Assembly (NCBI GenBank): GCA_002049895.1
Contig: MVCW01000002.1
Span: 1-35,166, forward strand
Origin: Candidatus Omnitrophica bacterium 4484_171
GTDB lineage: Bacteria > Omnitrophota > Gorgyraeia > Duberdicusellales > 4484-171
DNA length: 35,166 nucleotides
Reading direction: 5' to 3'
The position numbers and the translations under genes are program-made. Positions within the stretch are counted from its first letter, which is position 1; each line of letters begins with the position of its first letter. Of the stretch, positions 5,774 through 20,584 are shown one piece after another. The notes below the pieces were generated by a model that searched no databases, was not told the DNA's origin, and was given only the letters and a program-made list of their open reading frames with translations.

Positions 5774-6805
5774 TTAATGGAATGTGGATACGGCGGAAAA
5801 CGCTTTTATTTTATCAATCGTTCTTTTTATAACGCCTTCTAAATATGCAATACGCTCATCTTTCTTGCTTATCTGCTGCCTCAACTCTTCAACATCACTT
5901 TTGTTACCCTGTAACTGCTGGTTCAATTTCTTCTTCCATAAAGCAATCTCTTCATCTTTTTCCTTTAGCTTATCATTAAGTTCCTTGATTATACGGCTCT
6001 GGTTTGATGCAGACATTTTTTTTATCCTTACTTTCGCATTAATAATCTCTCTATCTTTAGCATCCAGTGCTTTAATTAAGCTCTCTATCTTCAACTGCAA
6101 CTTGCGTTCTTCTTCCGCCTTCTTGCTTTTCAAATCATTTATTTCTTCATTCTTTAATGCCACTAGACGGCTAAAATTCCTGATCTTATCTTTAAGTTTC
6201 TTTACCCGGGCTAATTTAACCCGGCCGGCATAATCAGTTTCCTTAGCGGAAAACTCATCTTTAAGACGAACTATTTCTTTATCTTTCTCTTCTAACTGCG
6301 TTTTAAGTTCCTCAATCTTCCGGCTTTGTTCCGGAGACGGTTTATACACAATTCTTTCTTTAACTGGCTGAATCACTTTACCTTCCGCGGAAAGCCTCTT
6401 GGAGAGTTTTGCCTTTAAATCATCTATTTCCTTATCTTTTAACCTTGATTCTTCTACGATTTCCGCCTGCATCTTACGAAGCTGAGTAACCTTACTTTCA
6501 AGTTTAGCTAATATATCTTTCATCTCAGGATGGACAACTGATGATTTTTCAGAAAGCGCTTCTCTTAATTTTCTGATTAATCCTTTATTTTCTTCTAACT
6601 GAAGAATAAACTTTGCTTTTTCGTTTTCTAAATCCTGTACTTTCTTCTGTAAAGATTTAATAACCGCTTTGGCGCTTGAGACATTACTGACTACACTGTC
6701 TATTTTGTTTCTAAACTCTTCCTCTAAACCCGCGGCATAAGAAGAAAGAGGACATAAAACAACCGCGCTTACAAAAATTAATTCCCATTTTGTGATTTTA
6801 CACAT
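5774..6805 (-). CDS. secreted coiled-coil protein of unknown function (last gene of the pilus locus)
   Basis: 343 aa. N-terminal signal-like segment MCKITKWELIFVSAVVLCPLSSYAAG, then almost continuous K/E/L-rich heptad sequence with six K(D/N)xEI motifs. Confidence 0.7.
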   Translation of the reverse strand: MCKITKWELIFVSAVVLCPLSSYAAGLEEEFRNKIDSVVSNVSSAKAVIKSLQKKVQDLENEKAKFILQLEENKGLIRKLREALSEKSSVVHPEMKDILAKLESKVTQLRKMQAEIVEESRLKDKEIDDLKAKLSKRLSAEGKVIQPVKERIVYKPSPEQSRKIEELKTQLEEKDKEIVRLKDEFSAKETDYAGRVKLARVKKLKDKIRNFSRLVALKNEEINDLKSKKAEEERKLQLKIESLIKALDAKDREIINAKVRIKKMSASNQSRIIKELNDKLKEKDEEIALWKKKLNQQLQGNKSDVEELRQQISKKDERIAYLEGVIKRTIDKIKAFSAVSTFH

Positions 6806-6878: not shown

Positions 6879-8087
6879 TTATGAAGGAGGAAAAGGGTCT
6901 GTAGGTTTAATTTCTTTCCAATCTATTATGTTGGCAATATAGGTTAGATATGGAATTGTAAGATTCGTGCTTAGAGTGTCATCGTAATTATACACTCGCG
7001 AGCTATAAGCATTGAGATTCACTGCTGACGAAGCGGAATCTTTTCCTCTCACGGCAATTGCTCCTGTAAAGTTTAAGGTGTCTTTGTCGCCCGGATTTCC
7101 CTTTGCTTCAAGCACTCCGCCGTCAGCACGGATAAAAGCATTGATAGTAAGATTATTCGGGGCCGAATCAGGAATAATGACGTCACCGGCTGCTGAAAGC
7201 CCCAGCTGAACTCCCGAATTACACGTAATATCGCCTTCTATATAAATATTGCCTGATGCGACAATATGCATCGATTCTGTAGTATTACCTGATATATGCA
7301 CATCACCGTCTACATAAATAACACCATTGGACGAGCTTAAGTCTGACCTGTCTATATCTCCGGAATATGAGAAATTGCCGTCAATTTTTCTTCCTCCGGT
7401 GGAGGCAACGTCGCTATAGTACTGCTTATCAACGCTGGAAAATGTGATGGGAGGAACATTGTTAACATCGCCGGTTATCGTTACTTTTGGGTCACTCTCA
7501 CCGTCTATGTTTCTTATATAATTAACATCGCCGGTTACTTTTATATTTCCGGTAGTAGGTTTAAAATAAACATCTCTTGCTAATATATCGCCGGTAAAAT
7601 TGGCTCCGCTTCGCGCTGTTATGTCGCTCAAAGTAGATATAAAAAAAGACGCGGGATTCTCAATGGCAACCTGGGCTAATATAACACGGGAAATATTCTG
7701 TGAGGGGTCTCTTGGATTTGTATACATCCCTTGAGACCTTATCCACACCGTAGGCCAGCTTCCAGAAACTGGTCCGTCAGCGACATTGGAGGTATAATGA
7801 CCCACAGTCTCTGTAGTCGTGCCGTCTGACCAAACTAAAGCTATATTGCTAAATCCAGTGCGCCACTTTTCATTTTTTCTTAGTTCAGATATAGAATTCT
7901 CAATACCCGCTTCAGCAGCATAAAACGCGTACAAAGACGCTATGCGCGTATCAACCGCCTTAAGCTGTATATTGGACCTCAGATAGGAAACACTTAAAAT
8001 TATCCCTAGGAAAAGCGCCAGGAATACGCTCGCAATCAAAACAAAACTTTTCTTCACGCTCTTTCTCCTTATTGGTTGCGAAAGCAT
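6879..8087 (-). CDS. PilX_N-type pilin-like protein with a C-terminal beta-helix-like repeat region
   Basis: N-terminus ...VKKSFVLIASVFLALFLGIILSV...FYAAEAGIE fits the PilX N-terminal pattern. The C-terminal half carries GD(V/I)-type repeats (VTGDVNYI, ITGDVNNV, VDGDVHISG, IEGDITC, AAGDVII). The true start is probably GTG 8057 (AAGGAG 7 nt upstream), which gives MKKSFVLIA.... Confidence 0.75.
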   Translation of the reverse strand: MLSQPIRRKSVKKSFVLIASVFLALFLGIILSVSYLRSNIQLKAVDTRIASLYAFYAAEAGIENSISELRKNEKWRTGFSNIALVWSDGTTTETVGHYTSNVADGPVSGSWPTVWIRSQGMYTNPRDPSQNISRVILAQVAIENPASFFISTLSDITARSGANFTGDILARDVYFKPTTGNIKVTGDVNYIRNIDGESDPKVTITGDVNNVPPITFSSVDKQYYSDVASTGGRKIDGNFSYSGDIDRSDLSSSNGVIYVDGDVHISGNTTESMHIVASGNIYIEGDITCNSGVQLGLSAAGDVIIPDSAPNNLTINAFIRADGGVLEAKGNPGDKDTLNFTGAIAVRGKDSASSAVNLNAYSSRVYNYDDTLSTNLTIPYLTYIANIIDWKEIKPTDPFPPS

Positions 8088-8566
8088 ATCTCAGTTGATG
8101 TTTTCACGTCTATATTACGGTTGAAAACCTTGTCTTTTAAAGCTAAATTTATAATAAAAGAATATGTGGTCGCATCAAACGAAGAGTCTGTATACCCTAT
8201 GTTTTTTGATAAAATCTTTGTTGTGCCGCCTGCGGCTTTTTGCAGCCATCCGTATGGCGAACCGCTAATAATAGAATACACAGATGATGTGCCATCAGGC
8301 AGATTCAAAGTTAAAACCTTATGGTTTGATGAAACAGCCGCGCTTCTAGCCAGTTTACCGCAAGAAGAAACATCATCTATAATATCATTGGCATCCTGCC
8401 ACAAATTAACGCGGGAAATCTGATTGTAAAACCCCGCCCAGTTTAATAAAAACGTCACATAAAACAGAGCTGATGTTATTCCTATTATAGCAACTACGGT
8501 AATTATCTCTATTAAGGTAAAAGCCTTATTCCCCTTTCTATATTTATTTATAAAATGATACACCAT
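8069..8566 (-). CDS. minor pilin / pseudopilin (prepilin-type N-terminal methylation domain)
   Basis: ...RKGNKAFTLIEIITVVAIIGITSALFYV is a class III signal peptide plus hydrophobic alpha-1 helix with Glu at +5. 165 aa. Confidence 0.8.
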   Translation of the reverse strand: MVYHFINKYRKGNKAFTLIEIITVVAIIGITSALFYVTFLLNWAGFYNQISRVNLWQDANDIIDDVSSCGKLARSAAVSSNHKVLTLNLPDGTSSVYSIISGSPYGWLQKAAGGTTKILSKNIGYTDSSFDATTYSFIINLALKDKVFNRNIDVKTSTEICFRNQ

Positions 8567-8638: not shown

Positions 8639-10807
8639 TTACATTCCACCGCCTGTCGTAAGTTTTATATTTCCAAGGTTTGTAGTCGTACCTGCGTTTA
8701 GTTTTATTGAACCCACGCTTTTAGAATCATAATTACTTTTCTCCACAGTCACAGAATGCCTTCTTGTAGTCTGATTGTAATAATTATTGCCAACGACTCC
8801 CGGAGGCGGCCAGGTCTCTATAACACCATCAAAAGTAAACCTGCCGCTGCCATTTGTATATTTAACAATACTGCCTCCGCTGTAGCGGTGCAAAGTGACT
8901 TTCGCGCCGCTTATGGGGCTGCCACCTGATGCGTCTACTACTCTTCCCTTTATAATTCCATAGCCTTCAGGCCAAAGATAAATCGGAGACTGCCAAGTTG
9001 ATACATTTGCCGCAATATGCGCCTCAGGCACATAAGCGGGATTATACCAATGGCTGCTCCCCCCCCAGTTATTTGATGTACTATCACAAGGATAATATCC
9101 GCCCCTGCTAGCTATAATTCGGCGTGTTCCTGTAACAATGGCGCACCCGCTGCCGCCGCTGCATTTAATTTCATAATATCCGCTATTGTTTGTAGCATAG
9201 TTCTTCCATCCGTAACCTGATATGTATATATCCACGTGCTCTATTCCAGATAATGTCTTGCCGTCTCTAACATAGCCTTTTGCGTCCCCGCAGGTATAGT
9301 CATTCGCTGCCGGCAGCTTAATAGTAACATCTCTTGTATCTCCCTCATGAAGAGAGCCGATATAATAGTAAGAACTATAAACTGTCTGCTGTCCTAAATC
9401 ATCACAACATGCCGTGTGCTGTACACCTGCCCTGCCCCTTATTACAATGTAATACCCAGTATTATTAGGAAACATATCCTGCTCGGCGGGAACACTTTCC
9501 TGCTTAAAGCCTCCTTCGTCAGTCGAATGCCATCCGCCGTGATAACCTTGCCGATTATGGTCGCTTCTTCTTTCCCATATACGGATTTCGCCTTGAATAG
9601 GCGCGTTGTTGCTGTCTATGAGATGTATTTTCAAAGTAGCCGTAGGAACAGTTACAAGCTTTATATCGCCTAAATCAAGATTCTGTCCGGGATTTACACA
9701 GATATAATCTGCTGCACTTGAACCAAGCCAGGGATTTGCGCAATTGCGTTCGCTCCCGTCAATATTCATTTGGGACGATGACCAGCCTCTATAGTTATAC
9801 GCCGTTCCGTAAGGACTACAAATATTTGTACAGTGATGATTATAAATATGGGGGTAATACCGCGTATCTGTACCTCGGCCTGTTATAACTGTAAAACATT
9901 TCTGGTCAGTATCAGTAAAATCAATTTTAAAATCAAAAGGATTTCCTGTATATGTCTTGTAACTTCCCTTCCGATAAAGAGACACGTATTGAGACAAGAC
10001 ACTTCCGATAAACCTCCCTTTTATATGCGCAGGAGTCGGCAGGGGGTCTAAAGAAATATCTGCCGTTGTAGACTGAGAAGAATATACATCAACATAATGG
10101 CCGCTGTGTTCGGCGCTATAAGTATAATCGTAATATGCCGGATGAGTAACAGTAATTTCCCATTGGCCCGGTTTAAGACGAAAAATAACAGTGCCGCCGG
10201 TGCCTGTTTCCGCGAAAGTATATTTTCCTGAACTATCGCTGGCTGTGGTATAAGAGATATCGAAACTGCCGGTTGTATCGTTATAATGCCTGGCGGTAAC
10301 ATTGGCGTTGGCTACAGGGCTACCATTATTAGAATCAGTAATTGTGCCCTCTATGTTTCCCGGAAGAGGCTCAGGCGGCCTTGATAATAAAAGCGCAAAA
10401 TGATAATCGCGCGCGTTGCCTCTTTCTGTCCAATTTACAGTCACATCCGCTTTCTTAAAATCACTGCTTCCAGCAACAGGGCTAATGGAAATACTGCGGG
10501 TAAAACCGGGGAAATCGGAAGATAAATCAGAAAATGTATGGCTTTCTAGCGTATCGAAATCAGTATGCGCCTGAGCCCTTACTTCCTCTAAACTGCGTTC
10601 GGCTAAATCATAAGCTATGCTTCTATTGCGTGAATCCTCAACCGCCCGGGAAACTACCACAAACGAAGAATAAGCGCCTGCACTTACAATGGCAATCAGC
10701 ACAGCGCTTACAAGAACCTCAATAAGAGTAAAACTCCTGGCAACTTTGATGCTGTGGCTTCTTTTATATAAGAAATGATGAATGCTTTTTAAATTTGTTT
10801 TTAGCAT
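8639..10807 (-). CDS. large modular pilin: PilV/GspI-like pilin module fused to tandem carboxypeptidase-regulatory-like beta-sandwich domains
   Basis: ...IKVARSFTLIEVLVSAVLIAIVSAGAY is a prepilin motif. Downstream are IEGTITDSNNGSPVANANVTA and IKGRVVDASGGSPISGAKVTLH...GSGRFTF (CarboxypepD_reg-like), plus 2-3 weaker copies and a Cys/Tyr/Gly-rich core. I place the start at ATG 10807; the ORF track extends to GTG 10849. Confidence 0.8.
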   Translation of the reverse strand: MLKTNLKSIHHFLYKRSHSIKVARSFTLIEVLVSAVLIAIVSAGAYSSFVVVSRAVEDSRNRSIAYDLAERSLEEVRAQAHTDFDTLESHTFSDLSSDFPGFTRSISISPVAGSSDFKKADVTVNWTERGNARDYHFALLLSRPPEPLPGNIEGTITDSNNGSPVANANVTARHYNDTTGSFDISYTTASDSSGKYTFAETGTGGTVIFRLKPGQWEITVTHPAYYDYTYSAEHSGHYVDVYSSQSTTADISLDPLPTPAHIKGRFIGSVLSQYVSLYRKGSYKTYTGNPFDFKIDFTDTDQKCFTVITGRGTDTRYYPHIYNHHCTNICSPYGTAYNYRGWSSSQMNIDGSERNCANPWLGSSAADYICVNPGQNLDLGDIKLVTVPTATLKIHLIDSNNAPIQGEIRIWERRSDHNRQGYHGGWHSTDEGGFKQESVPAEQDMFPNNTGYYIVIRGRAGVQHTACCDDLGQQTVYSSYYYIGSLHEGDTRDVTIKLPAANDYTCGDAKGYVRDGKTLSGIEHVDIYISGYGWKNYATNNSGYYEIKCSGGSGCAIVTGTRRIIASRGGYYPCDSTSNNWGGSSHWYNPAYVPEAHIAANVSTWQSPIYLWPEGYGIIKGRVVDASGGSPISGAKVTLHRYSGGSIVKYTNGSGRFTFDGVIETWPPPGVVGNNYYNQTTRRHSVTVEKSNYDSKSVGSIKLNAGTTTNLGNIKLTTGGGM

Positions 10808-10931
10808 ACACACCTTCCCTTTCCCACTCCTTCTTATTATACAAACCACACTTTATATGGATAATCTGGTATAATGCCTTATTTTAACAGTAATTGCTCG
10901 GTATAAGCTACTGCCTCCCCCTTTCCTTTCA

Positions 10932-10961
10932 TTTATACCATATTTTTATTATATTTTTCAA
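10932..10961 (-). promoter_or_regulatory. candidate promoter for the modular-pilin sub-operon
   Basis: Minus strand reads TTGAAA (10961..10956), an 18-nt spacer, then TATAAA (10937..10932), within the 170-bp gap after the secretin gene. Confidence 0.3.
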
Positions 10962-11019
10962 AAGGACAATACAGCTTAAGCAAAGCCTTAAAAGCGGCTA
11001 TTTGGACAGAAACAGACAG

Positions 11020-14950: not shown

Positions 14951-15322
14951 TTAAAGATGCGTATCCGGCCAAGCGCTAAAATGCGTGGATTTATCTACCT
15001 GGTATCCGTTATTGTTATCTCCTATAAGAGTATAAGCTACCCCGAAAGGACACACGGGCTGGTCCGCAATAGTATGGGCCCCGTCTCCATCTACATCAGG
15101 ATAATAGGGGTATAAATTTGCCAAAGCATTACAGTTAGCCCAGCTTCTGTTTTCTGAATAGCACATCTGAAGGGCAGTGTTGATAGTGCGGATATTAGAA
15201 GCGCAGGTTTTGGTATTCGCCTGCCTTATCGCCCTTAAGGTATTGGGCAAAATAAGAGCGACTAATATACCGATGATAACTAAAACTACCAGAAGTTCGA
15301 TTAAAGTAAAAGACTTTTTCAT
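14951..15322 (-). CDS. major pilin / GspG-like pseudopilin
   Basis: MKKSFTLIELLVVLVIIGILVALILPN... is a class III signal peptide with a very short leader. 123 aa. Strong SD AAGGAGG 5 nt upstream. Four Cys residues in the globular part. Confidence 0.9.
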   Translation of the reverse strand: MKKSFTLIELLVVLVIIGILVALILPNTLRAIRQANTKTCASNIRTINTALQMCYSENRSWANCNALANLYPYYPDVDGDGAHTIADQPVCPFGVAYTLIGDNNNGYQVDKSTHFSAWPDTHL

Positions 15323-19165: not shown

Positions 19166-20584
19166 ATTTCGGTTCTTTCGTAATTAATGTGCGTACCTCC
19201 TAGGGATTTAGTAATCCACGGTGTTGGTGAATCTTTAGCTTGAAGTAGTCTATGTCCTTATACCCATAGGCCATACGTTTGAGACGTTTGATTTTGTTGT
19301 TGATGCCTTCCGATATAGCCGAGCTGATTTTCTTTCTGAACCAGTTGATAATATACTGTATTTTCTCCGGGAAACTTTCAGCTATCTTTCTAAACACGCT
19401 TAGGGAACTGGTTAAGGCGTCTTTAATTCAGCCTCGAAGATATCCTTCGGCTCTAGCGAGATCTTCTTTATAATCGTAAACCTCTAAAAAGCTCTCTTTT
19501 AATAACATCGCTTTGTAGATAGGCTCATTAATCCTACACAACCTCTCTAGATGAGAAGCATGAGAAGCCTGCTTTGGGGTAAGCTTATCTTTCCTTCTCA
19601 AAAGAACAAATCTCTGCCGGCAATGCATTAGTTCAATTAATTCCTTATTCTCATCCCTCCCTGCCTTACGTAATTCTTGTTTCCCAATCATATCTACTGC
19701 CCAGTTTAGCTTCTGTATCACACAGAACTTGTCATAAACTATCAGAGCGTTAACTGCATATTGACTACCAGAGCTTATGTAATTGCGTGCCCCATCTAAG
19801 GCTGCCGACTCTATTCTTGAACAATTATCTTCGCCTATACCAGTATAATATCCGGCCAATACCTCCTTTCTTCTGCCTCTATCATTCCAAATAACAGCTT
19901 TTATGTCCGTATCTACCACGTTAGTTAAATAACGATGACTTTACGATAGCTTACTTCATCAATGCTTAAGTTTATCGCTGCTGGCGGGGGCGCCAACTCT
20001 TTAGCATATCGCTAGCATATCGCTCATCCAAAACCTCTTTATCTATCCGATAGATCACCTCATCATCCAGCCCCAAAAACCATCCTGTCTCTTGATTGGT
20101 GATTATCGCTGTCAATCAGTTTACCTTCTCAACAAACCGCCTGGTTACTCTAGCCCATTTCTTCAGCCAGGAAATTTCCCCAATATAAATACGATTATCT
20201 ACGGAATATTTATATTTTCTCTTGATTACATGTAGATATACCCGCTTTTCAAATATCAGCAAATCTTCTGCTGCCGGCTCTTCCCATTCATGGTAACCAA
20301 TTTTGTGGACTTGCCCACATCCTGAACACACAAACCGCTTCCTTTTGTAAGGCTGCGGTTTTATGTGCATCTCTTTGTCTGTCTCTGATAAAATCCCTGT
20401 TATCTCTGGTATATTTAGTGCTTTTCTGATATTATATATTCGCATCGGTTACCTTCTGGTTAGTTGCTTTTTACTAACCTAACTATACCAGGTTTTCTTT
20501 GGTAATCGATGCTTTTTTATTTCTCCATCCTTATTAATAACTTACATAAATTACTCCACATTATTTACGAATAACCCCTAAATT
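19165..20584 (-). mobile_element. ISL3-family insertion sequence, decayed copy
   Basis: Imperfect ~31-33 bp terminal inverted repeats: 19165-19195 aatttcggttctttcgtaattaatgtgcgta versus the reverse complement of 20553-20584 aatttaggggttattcgtaaataatgtggagta. They enclose ISL3-type transposase fragments. Boundaries are approximate, and I see no clear target-site duplication. Confidence 0.75.
19200..20445 (-). pseudogene. ISL3-family transposase, disrupted by two in-frame TGA codons, an 11-bp duplication and a 1-nt deletion
   Basis: The fragments cover zf-ISL3 (FVCSGCGQVH...RKYKY), the catalytic region (LSIDEVSYRK / SHRYLTNVVDTD, YDKFCVIQKLNWAVD) and the C-terminal GINNKIKRLKRMAYGYKDIDYFKLKI. 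Confidence 0.85.

Follow-up and report, generated by a model that had tools for sequence, protein, structure and literature searches.

What kind of pilus subunit ends in a chain of β-sandwich domains, and where in the pilus would it sit? The question is raised by a 722-residue open reading frame (ORF) at positions 8639 to 10807 of contig MVCW01000002.1 (assembly GCA_002049895.1) from Candidatus Omnitrophica bacterium 4484_171. We analysed the first 35,166 nucleotides of this contig, hereafter the window. The ORF is present on the minus strand (an initial annotation of the DNA had left the strand unstated). Its product is a pilus subunit, made of a small pilin body and a chain of five β-sandwich domains, and it belongs to a conserved Omnitrophota family inside the known class of "modular pilins". 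We think it fairly probable that the protein is a minor subunit of a type IV filament, placed in the priming or tip complex and bearing an adhesive or ligand-binding arm.

Pilin module and family

The initial annotation had proposed a modular type IV pilin-like protein with CarboxypepD_reg-like β-sandwiches, and had named the lack of any pilin or CarboxypepD_reg match as grounds for rejecting it. Both matches were found above their Pfam cut-offs, and the gene sits among pilus genes. N_methyl (PF07963) scored 25.7 bits against a cut-off of 21.2 over residues 23-46, and TIGR02532 scored 17.6 bits against 16.3. CarboxypepD_reg (PF13620) scored 78.4 bits across the whole protein (cut-off 32.3) in two stretches, and CarbopepD_reg_2 (PF13715) gave 39 bits over residues 619-662. 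With an N-terminal IPR012902 and at least one domain that is not type IV pilus-specific, the protein falls under the published definition of a modular pilin (PMC8179133). All eight peptide strings quoted earlier occur in the translation, and the composition described as rich in Cys, Tyr, Trp and Gly corresponds to counts of 11 Cys, 12 Trp, 49 Tyr and 72 Gly. The only sequence relatives in the PDB are the carboxypeptidase D transthyretin-like domain and pilin α1 helices. No catalytic domain was detectable by Pfam or NCBIfam, and a carboxypeptidase-related or enzymatic role was rejected on that basis.

The stop codon occupies 8639-8641. The start that gives 722 residues is an ATG with AGGGAAGG upstream at a suitable spacing; an alternative in-frame GTG at 10849 would add fourteen residues (736 in total) and has no such upstream site. 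The exact sequence of the window falls in a 90%-identity cluster (P0001) with OPX30936.1, a "hypothetical protein" of the same bacterium, and public annotation of the family as a whole reads "hypothetical" or "prepilin-type domain protein".

We modelled the protein with AlphaFold2 on sixteen homologues (mean predicted local distance difference test score, pLDDT, 80.3; predicted template modelling score, pTM, 0.44). The leader is disordered in the model. The α1 helix that follows spans residues 28-83 (56 residues by DSSP), and the pilin head is predicted as three β-strands (102-111, 114-128 and 131-142, pLDDT ~76-89). Counting Phe26 as +1, Glu5 is E30, which does not vary in the 16-sequence alignment and occurs in 92% of 89 relatives. 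Relatives that keep the pilin N-terminus, for which the initial annotation had advised a search, do exist: 78 of the 89 carry the motif [small residue]-F-[T/S]-L-x-E, and N_methyl matched 22 of 22 sampled. Of the other eleven, most either come from gene calls truncated at the N-terminus or have a near-variant of the motif. The pilin module is the most conserved part of the family.

Residue -1 among the 78 motif-bearing relatives is Gly in 33, Ala in 33, Ser in 10, Cys in one and Asn in one. Since it is always small across the family, the canonical Gly(-1) feature is relaxed, not absent. The same position is Ser or Ala in all four pilin-like proteins of the operon (KKS/F, ARS/F, NKA/F and KKS/F, with the slash before residue +1), which suggests a relaxed prepilin peptidase specificity in this organism; orthologues of the major pilin at other loci have Gly. 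No gene for the prepilin peptidase PilD was found in the window. A separate observation concerns the αβ-loop of the pilin, where a Cys pair at alignment columns 104 and 118 co-occurs in eight of sixteen homologues and is missing from the window protein and its closest relatives. Read from the alignment, this pair is a putative clade-specific extra disulfide.

The N-terminus had also been assigned to the PilV/GspI type. Resemblance along the α1 helix stands; family membership does not. With PilV (TIGR02523) the score was 21.1 bits (cut-off 52.2) and with GspI (TIGR01707) 17.6 (cut-off 44.35), in both cases over residues 25-87 only. With the NCBIfam equivalog cut-offs unmet and the profiles reaching only α1, we rejected PilV or GspI as a sequence-based identity for the pilin head. 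A profile of the family compared with solved pilins in the PDB likewise matched over α1 only.

One alternative is that the protein is an artefact, in which a small pilin gene and the gene of a β-sandwich surface protein were joined by misassembly or a frameshift. The initial annotation had itself raised this case, and the family makes it vanishingly improbable. A word-indexed search returned sixteen full-length homologues with 31-100% identity and 92-100% query coverage. When 1.84 billion cluster representatives were searched exhaustively with a profile, 280 proteins matched at E ≤ 1e-30, and among the matches were 89 relatives of 640-800 amino acids, most of which align end to end to the profile in one stretch. 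These sequences come from several assembly sources (NCBI, JGI, ENA and Logan), and the motif SRPPEPLPGNI, which links the pilin to the first arm module, is conserved among homologues. Full-length relatives from independent assemblies thus refute the artefact, and the ORF is one gene.

The named sources of the relatives are Candidatus Omnitrophota/Omnitrophica metagenome-assembled genomes, plus two labelled "uncultured Planctomycetia". Length and the five-module layout are constant even across relatives less than 50% identical. The other strong profile matches, giant proteins with many repeats, have only the CarboxypepD_reg repeats in common with the family. In one relative, P0155, a pilin base of this kind precedes five canonical CarboxypepD_reg repeats, a layout which suggests that the family elaborates on a plain design of a pilin plus five repeats.

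The five-module arm

The chain that follows the pilin head is an array of five β-sandwich modules (D1 to D5, Table 1), of which two are significant by Pfam, one is a clear homologue and two are divergent. This count, obtained from hidden Markov models and structure prediction as the initial annotation had recommended, agrees with its reading of at least two clear CarboxypepD_reg signatures and three weaker ones. The clear pair is D1 and D5, which pass the Pfam cut-off and lie at opposite ends of the array, not next to each other. The weaker signatures coincide with the first model strands of D2, D3 and D4 (260, 389 and 506), where the modules as modelled start at ~150, 260, 389, 506 and 616. 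Profile-profile comparison (hhalign) linked D1 to D4 at 98.3%, D1 to D5 at 98.5% and D4 to D5 at 96.5%. D2 was linked to D3 and D5 at 82-85% and D3 to D1, D4 and D5 at 78-89%, in each case over the N-terminal half only.

Several short motifs stand out in conservation. D2 carries a low-confidence, Cys-bearing insertion (~311-368) that holds the conserved GWSS (341-344). D3 has VPAEQ (439-443) and a CC pair (467-468), and D5 has E-x-W-P (664-667). We found no single hyper-conserved "head" module, and conservation is roughly even across D1 to D5. All eleven Cys fall in the arm, between residues 304 and 574. In the homologue alignment C468 and C549 are invariant and C506 nearly so; C304 and C370 are replaced jointly in three homologues, and homologue P0006 lacks C330, C356, C467 and C506 as a group. 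The joint loss of C304 and C370, together with the confinement of Cys to the arm, is as expected of an exported, disulfide-bonded protein.

Whole-chain Foldseek searches of the PDB and BFVD returned only extracellular tandem β-sandwich arrays, at ~10% identity and with low TM-scores, the latter because module orientations differ. The matches were the Bacillus anthracis TIE protein, sortase pilins and adhesins of Gram-positive bacteria, MG domains of α2-macroglobulin, and phage baseplate or fibre decorations. Thioester or isopeptide chemistry, as in the TIE and sortase-pilin matches, was considered and set aside, given the ~10% identity and a CC pair at 467-468 that by eye has no conserved Gln after it in the alignment.

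Stalk arrays are what these fold matches are, and CarboxypepD_reg and prealbumin-like domains are commonly spacers. It could be argued that the arm is passive, serving as a stalk or sheath, or else stabilising the tip complex or secretin passage, with binding left to a β-solenoid protein encoded two genes downstream. The lack of a module that stands out in conservation and the five plain canonical repeats that P0155 carries on the same kind of pilin base would suit such a role. Spacers tend to vary, whereas module number and length stay constant in this family, and D2 and D3 each have their own elaboration, with Cys and loop motifs that are conserved. The constancy of the array, its even conservation and its elaborated D2 and D3 speak against an arm that is no more than a repeat spacer, and we regard a passive arm as quite unlikely. 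An adhesive or ligand-binding arm remains the reading we prefer.

Operon, neighbouring pilins and filament tip

The gene is flanked by that of a secretin and by two more pilin-like genes, and every gene of the operon is on the minus strand (Table 1). A genome scan with a 6-sequence alignment was used to find related loci. The same order and sizes of eleven genes (PilZ, PilB, PilC, major pilin, PilM-N, PilO, PilP-like, secretin, the modular pilin, a ~165-residue pilin and a ~400-residue protein) recur in loci L001/L002, L005 and L007; in L003 they do so up to the contig limit. Genes past the ~400-residue protein vary between loci.

Table 1. Features of the modular pilin and of its operon. Positions are those of the window; a slash in a sequence stands before residue +1.
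Feature	Positions	Strand	Basis
Modular minor pilin, 722 aa	8639..10807	-	ORF translation, Pfam, homologues, model
Basic leader peptide, residues 1-25, with KVARS as its last letters before Phe26	10733..10807	-	sequence; cleavage predicted
Pilin module, residues 26-147, FTLIE with Glu5 (E30)	10367..10732	-	N_methyl, model DSSP
D1, residues 148-256, canonical CarboxypepD_reg-like β-sandwich	10040..10366	-	PF13620 45.7 bits alone; pLDDT ~80-92
D2, residues 257-386, divergent β-sandwich	9650..10039	-	model; no Pfam match alone
D3, residues 387-503, divergent β-sandwich	9299..9649	-	model; no Pfam match alone
D4, residues 504-614, CarboxypepD_reg homologue below Pfam threshold	8966..9298	-	13-17 bits alone; hhalign
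D5, residues 615-722, canonical CarboxypepD_reg-like β-sandwich	8642..8965	-	PF13620 48.9 bits alone; pLDDT >90
PilZ-domain protein, 119 aa	18305-18664	-	
PilB/GspE assembly ATPase with MshEN domain, 573 aa	16600-18321	-	
PilC/GspF platform protein, 403 aa	15389-16600	-	
Major pilin or pseudopilin, GspG-like, 123 aa, KKS/FTLIELLVV	14951-15322	-	N_methyl 28 bits
PilM-PilN fusion, 495 aa	13457-14944	-	Pfam/NCBIfam
PilO, 207 aa	12847-13470	-	Pfam/NCBIfam
PilP/GspC-like, 150 aa	12398-12850	-	Pfam/NCBIfam
Secretin, 463 aa	11020-12411	-	PF00263 146.7 bits
Minor pilin, 165 aa, KA/FTLIE, Glu5 present	8069-8566	-	N_methyl 24.2 bits
ComZ/GspK-like pilin, 402 aa, KKS/FVLIAS, no Glu5	6879-8087	-	model; Foldseek

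The gene of the 165-residue minor pilin is the next after that of the modular pilin and overlaps the start of the 402-residue gene; its counterpart lies in the equivalent place at L001, L003, L005 and L007. At the loci compared, Glu5 is always kept in both the modular pilin and the 165-residue pilin. It is absent from the 402-residue protein and from every orthologue examined, whose mature N-termini at four loci read FVLIA, FVLLG, FILLA and FALIL (with residue -1 of the orthologues as in G/FVLLG, S/FILLA and S/FALIL). The hydrophobic N-terminus typical of pilins is common to all of these. In type 4 filaments a Glu5-less subunit, such as GspK or PilX, assembles first and caps the fibre. The 402-residue protein stands at the operon end in all loci examined. 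Pfam returned only weak matches to it (FapA, bactofilin and DUF7305). Its model (pLDDT 91, pTM 0.80) combines a 60-residue α1 helix (12-71) with a pilin sheet and a β-solenoid. ComZ of Thermus thermophilus (6qvi_B, E 9e-8, probability 1.00) was the top fold match in the PDB, followed by ice-binding β-solenoids. TM-scores are low (0.27-0.32), so that the domains of the two proteins correspond and the overall geometry is not identical.

For ComZ itself, GspK is the closest match to the pilin domain, the closest relative of the solenoid is the ice-binding β-solenoid FfIBP (4NU2), and a tip position has been argued on structural grounds (PMC6561018). PilA2, which ComZ binds, is described as closely homologous to GspI in structure (PMC6561018). 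The initial annotation had put forward the modular pilin as the best candidate for the functional tip. We would revise this, since the lack of Glu5 in all orthologues and the ComZ match make the 402-residue protein, two genes downstream, the likelier apex. It is likely the filament cap, and the modular pilin would, by analogy, be its Glu5-bearing GspI/PilA2-like partner with a long side arm.

By appearance the machinery falls between type IVa pili and type II secretion systems, and the cluster could be read as type II secretion-like, with the modular pilin as a minor pseudopilin in a short pseudopilus confined to the periplasm, its arm engaging secreted substrates or the secretin and not external surfaces. 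The best match of the major subunit is GspG (49.3 bits, below the cut-off of 88.85). PilM and PilN form a single protein as in GspL (~485-498 residues in related loci), the PilP-like protein matches GspC_delta, the secretin scores similarly with the PilQ and GspD models (both ~205 bits and both below cut-offs), the ATPase is near both PilB and GspE, no PilT was found in the window, and the GspK-like neighbour suits a GspK-I-J-type tip. Against these points, the ATPase scores higher with PilB (642 bits) than with GspE (594 bits), and PilO and PilN domains are present with no match to the GspL or GspM models. ComZ, the closest structural analogue of the neighbour, is from a pilus system, and a 575-residue arm fits a periplasmic piston poorly. 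Type-4a pilus genes occur across Omnitrophota classes, with expressed pili in V. archaeovorus (PMC10066038). We judge the secretion reading unlikely and continue with a type IV filament.

In the mechanism that we propose, a prepilin peptidase would take off the 25-residue leader before Phe26, and the α1 helix with its Glu5 would enter the filament core. The modular pilin, the 165-residue pilin and the Glu5-less ComZ/GspK-like pilin would together make a priming or tip complex. The ComZ-like protein would form the cap and the modular pilin would lie directly beneath it, like GspI under GspK, or PilA2 as modelled against ComZ. The growing filament would push this complex outward. From the pilin head's C-terminus would project the arm of ~575 residues, its five modules stapled by disulfides, three of them CarboxypepD_reg-like and two elaborated. 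Its GWSS, VPAEQ and ExWP loops would be presented to a surface, a glycan, or a host or partner cell, most likely for adhesion or ligand binding. The operon has no PilY1-like gene, so the role of a PilY1-type adhesin, or that of the lectin and vWA modules of other modular pilins, may fall to the arm.

A number of points weigh against this proposal. The adhesive role of the arm is one that we infer, and CarboxypepD_reg-like domains are often plain structural spacers. The five-module arm and the β-solenoid cap would both need to pass through the secretin. NCBIfam scores leave it ambiguous whether the machinery is that of type IVa pili or of type II secretion. The modular pilin has Ser where Gly is canonical at -1, though so does the major pilin. 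The sub-threshold PilV and GspI scores and the PDB matches confined to α1 make the GspI-like position an analogy. Finally, a pTM of 0.44 and pLDDT below 50 for residues 311-340 mean that the model does not fix the geometry between modules.

Other features of the locus were recorded alongside. A 212-bp AT-rich gap (10808-11019) separates the secretin stop from the start of the modular pilin gene, where most other operon genes abut or overlap, and it leaves room for an internal promoter serving the three minor-pilin genes. The PilM-PilN fusion weakly matches the PilM-like Amuc_1101 family of Akkermansia. The 123-residue major pilin has four Cys and, at residues ~75-82, a D-V-D-G-D-G loop, which we take to resemble the calcium-binding loops of type II secretion major pseudopilins; the loop reads DEDGDG in L005 and L007, and L001 and L003 lack it. 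Just upstream of the PilZ/PilB end, at 19428-20445 on the minus strand, two short ORFs match Zn_ribbon_ISL3 (109 residues) and part of DDE_Tnp_ISL3 (163 residues), probably a decayed insertion sequence. After the operon, a 343-residue coiled-coil protein with a hydrophobic signal-like N-terminus is encoded at 5774-6805 (minus strand), and its gene is preceded at 6854-6825 by a sigma-70-type sequence that matches the consensus at 12 of 12 positions (TTGACA-18-TATAAT). The gene in this place differs in related loci, so it is probably outside the conserved pilus cluster.

Meaning and comparison with known systems

The phylum Omnitrophota comprises uncultured and mostly ultra-small bacteria, for which a host-dependent or predatory way of life is predicted. 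Attachment to other cells has been proposed for them, and type IV pili have been named a key trait for their symbiosis or predation (PMC10066038). Seymour et al. 2023 treat their type-4a pili at the level of gene presence only (PMC10066038). The conserved set of three minor-pilin genes (armed pilin, small pilin and ComZ-like cap) offers a candidate for the portion of the pilus in contact with the partner. Our literature searches found no paper that describes this Omnitrophota family or characterises any PF13620-type pilin, and the family provides a well-populated natural example of a pilin plus PF13620, so far only a line in a catalogue. Otherwise, the protein is of an expected kind in an expected place. 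A bolder idea, which we hold to be doubtful, is that many Omnitrophota share a two-part tip, in which a ComZ-like β-solenoid cap is joined by an armed pilin at the GspI position, and that D2-D3 form an undescribed receptor-binding unit that captures host or prey. If true, the family would be a lineage-specific host-attachment device and not a generic modular pilin.

The initial annotation had called such grafts rare and this one unrecognised, a view that the catalogue of Raynaud et al. 2021 overturns. Among more than 1,200 modular pilins in InterPro, with 264 architectures (PMC8179133), IPR012902-PF13620 is the third most frequent, with 66 proteins (PMC8179133, Dataset S1). A form with two copies of PF13620 is listed with one protein (PMC8179133, Dataset S1), and the domain in modular pilins is read as a carbohydrate-binding-like fold (PMC8179133). 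Like these proteins, the one in the window has a prepilin motif and then CarboxypepD_reg-like domains. Unlike them, its family carries five modules, of which Pfam misses two, together with conserved Cys and a fixed place in an operon; the catalogue itself is bioinformatic only (PMC8179133).

Considered by itself, the arm is like the B. anthracis TIE protein (6fwv) and the sortase pilins SpaA, BcpA and GBS52 in that prealbumin/CnaB-like sandwiches follow one another in a row. Sortase-linked assembly and isopeptide or thioester chemistry are features of those proteins, whereas the arm matches them at ~10% identity with low TM-scores. The likeness is one of analogy, not membership.

Two pilins of Streptococcus sanguinis, PilB (pilin plus vWA) and PilC (pilin plus lectin), share the plan of a small pilin with a C-terminal functional module. 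Both are type IV pilus minor pilins and are proposed to be tip-exposed adhesins (PMC8179133). They differ in that the host is monoderm, the module is a single bulky one of another fold and binding has been shown experimentally, whereas the protein described here has five β-sandwiches and is known from its sequence. CofB of enterotoxigenic Escherichia coli, as summarised in that paper, also has a pilin module followed by β-repeat and β-sandwich domains on a linker, and is predicted at the tip (PMC8179133). In the same summary account CofB is a type IVb protein described as a trimer, with other folds, and serves as adaptor for the secreted CofJ, features that set it apart from the modular pilin.

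The arrangement of the three minor pilins is like that of T. thermophilus PilA2-ComZ and of GspK-GspI-GspJ, where a Glu5-less GspK-like pilin, in ComZ with a β-solenoid, stands beside small Glu5-bearing minor pilins. The other fold matches of the 402-residue protein lie in the same class of ice-binding β-solenoids as FfIBP (4NU2). PilA2 and GspI are small, whereas the protein that would by analogy take the GspI position falls below the GspI and PilV cut-offs and carries an arm of 575 residues.

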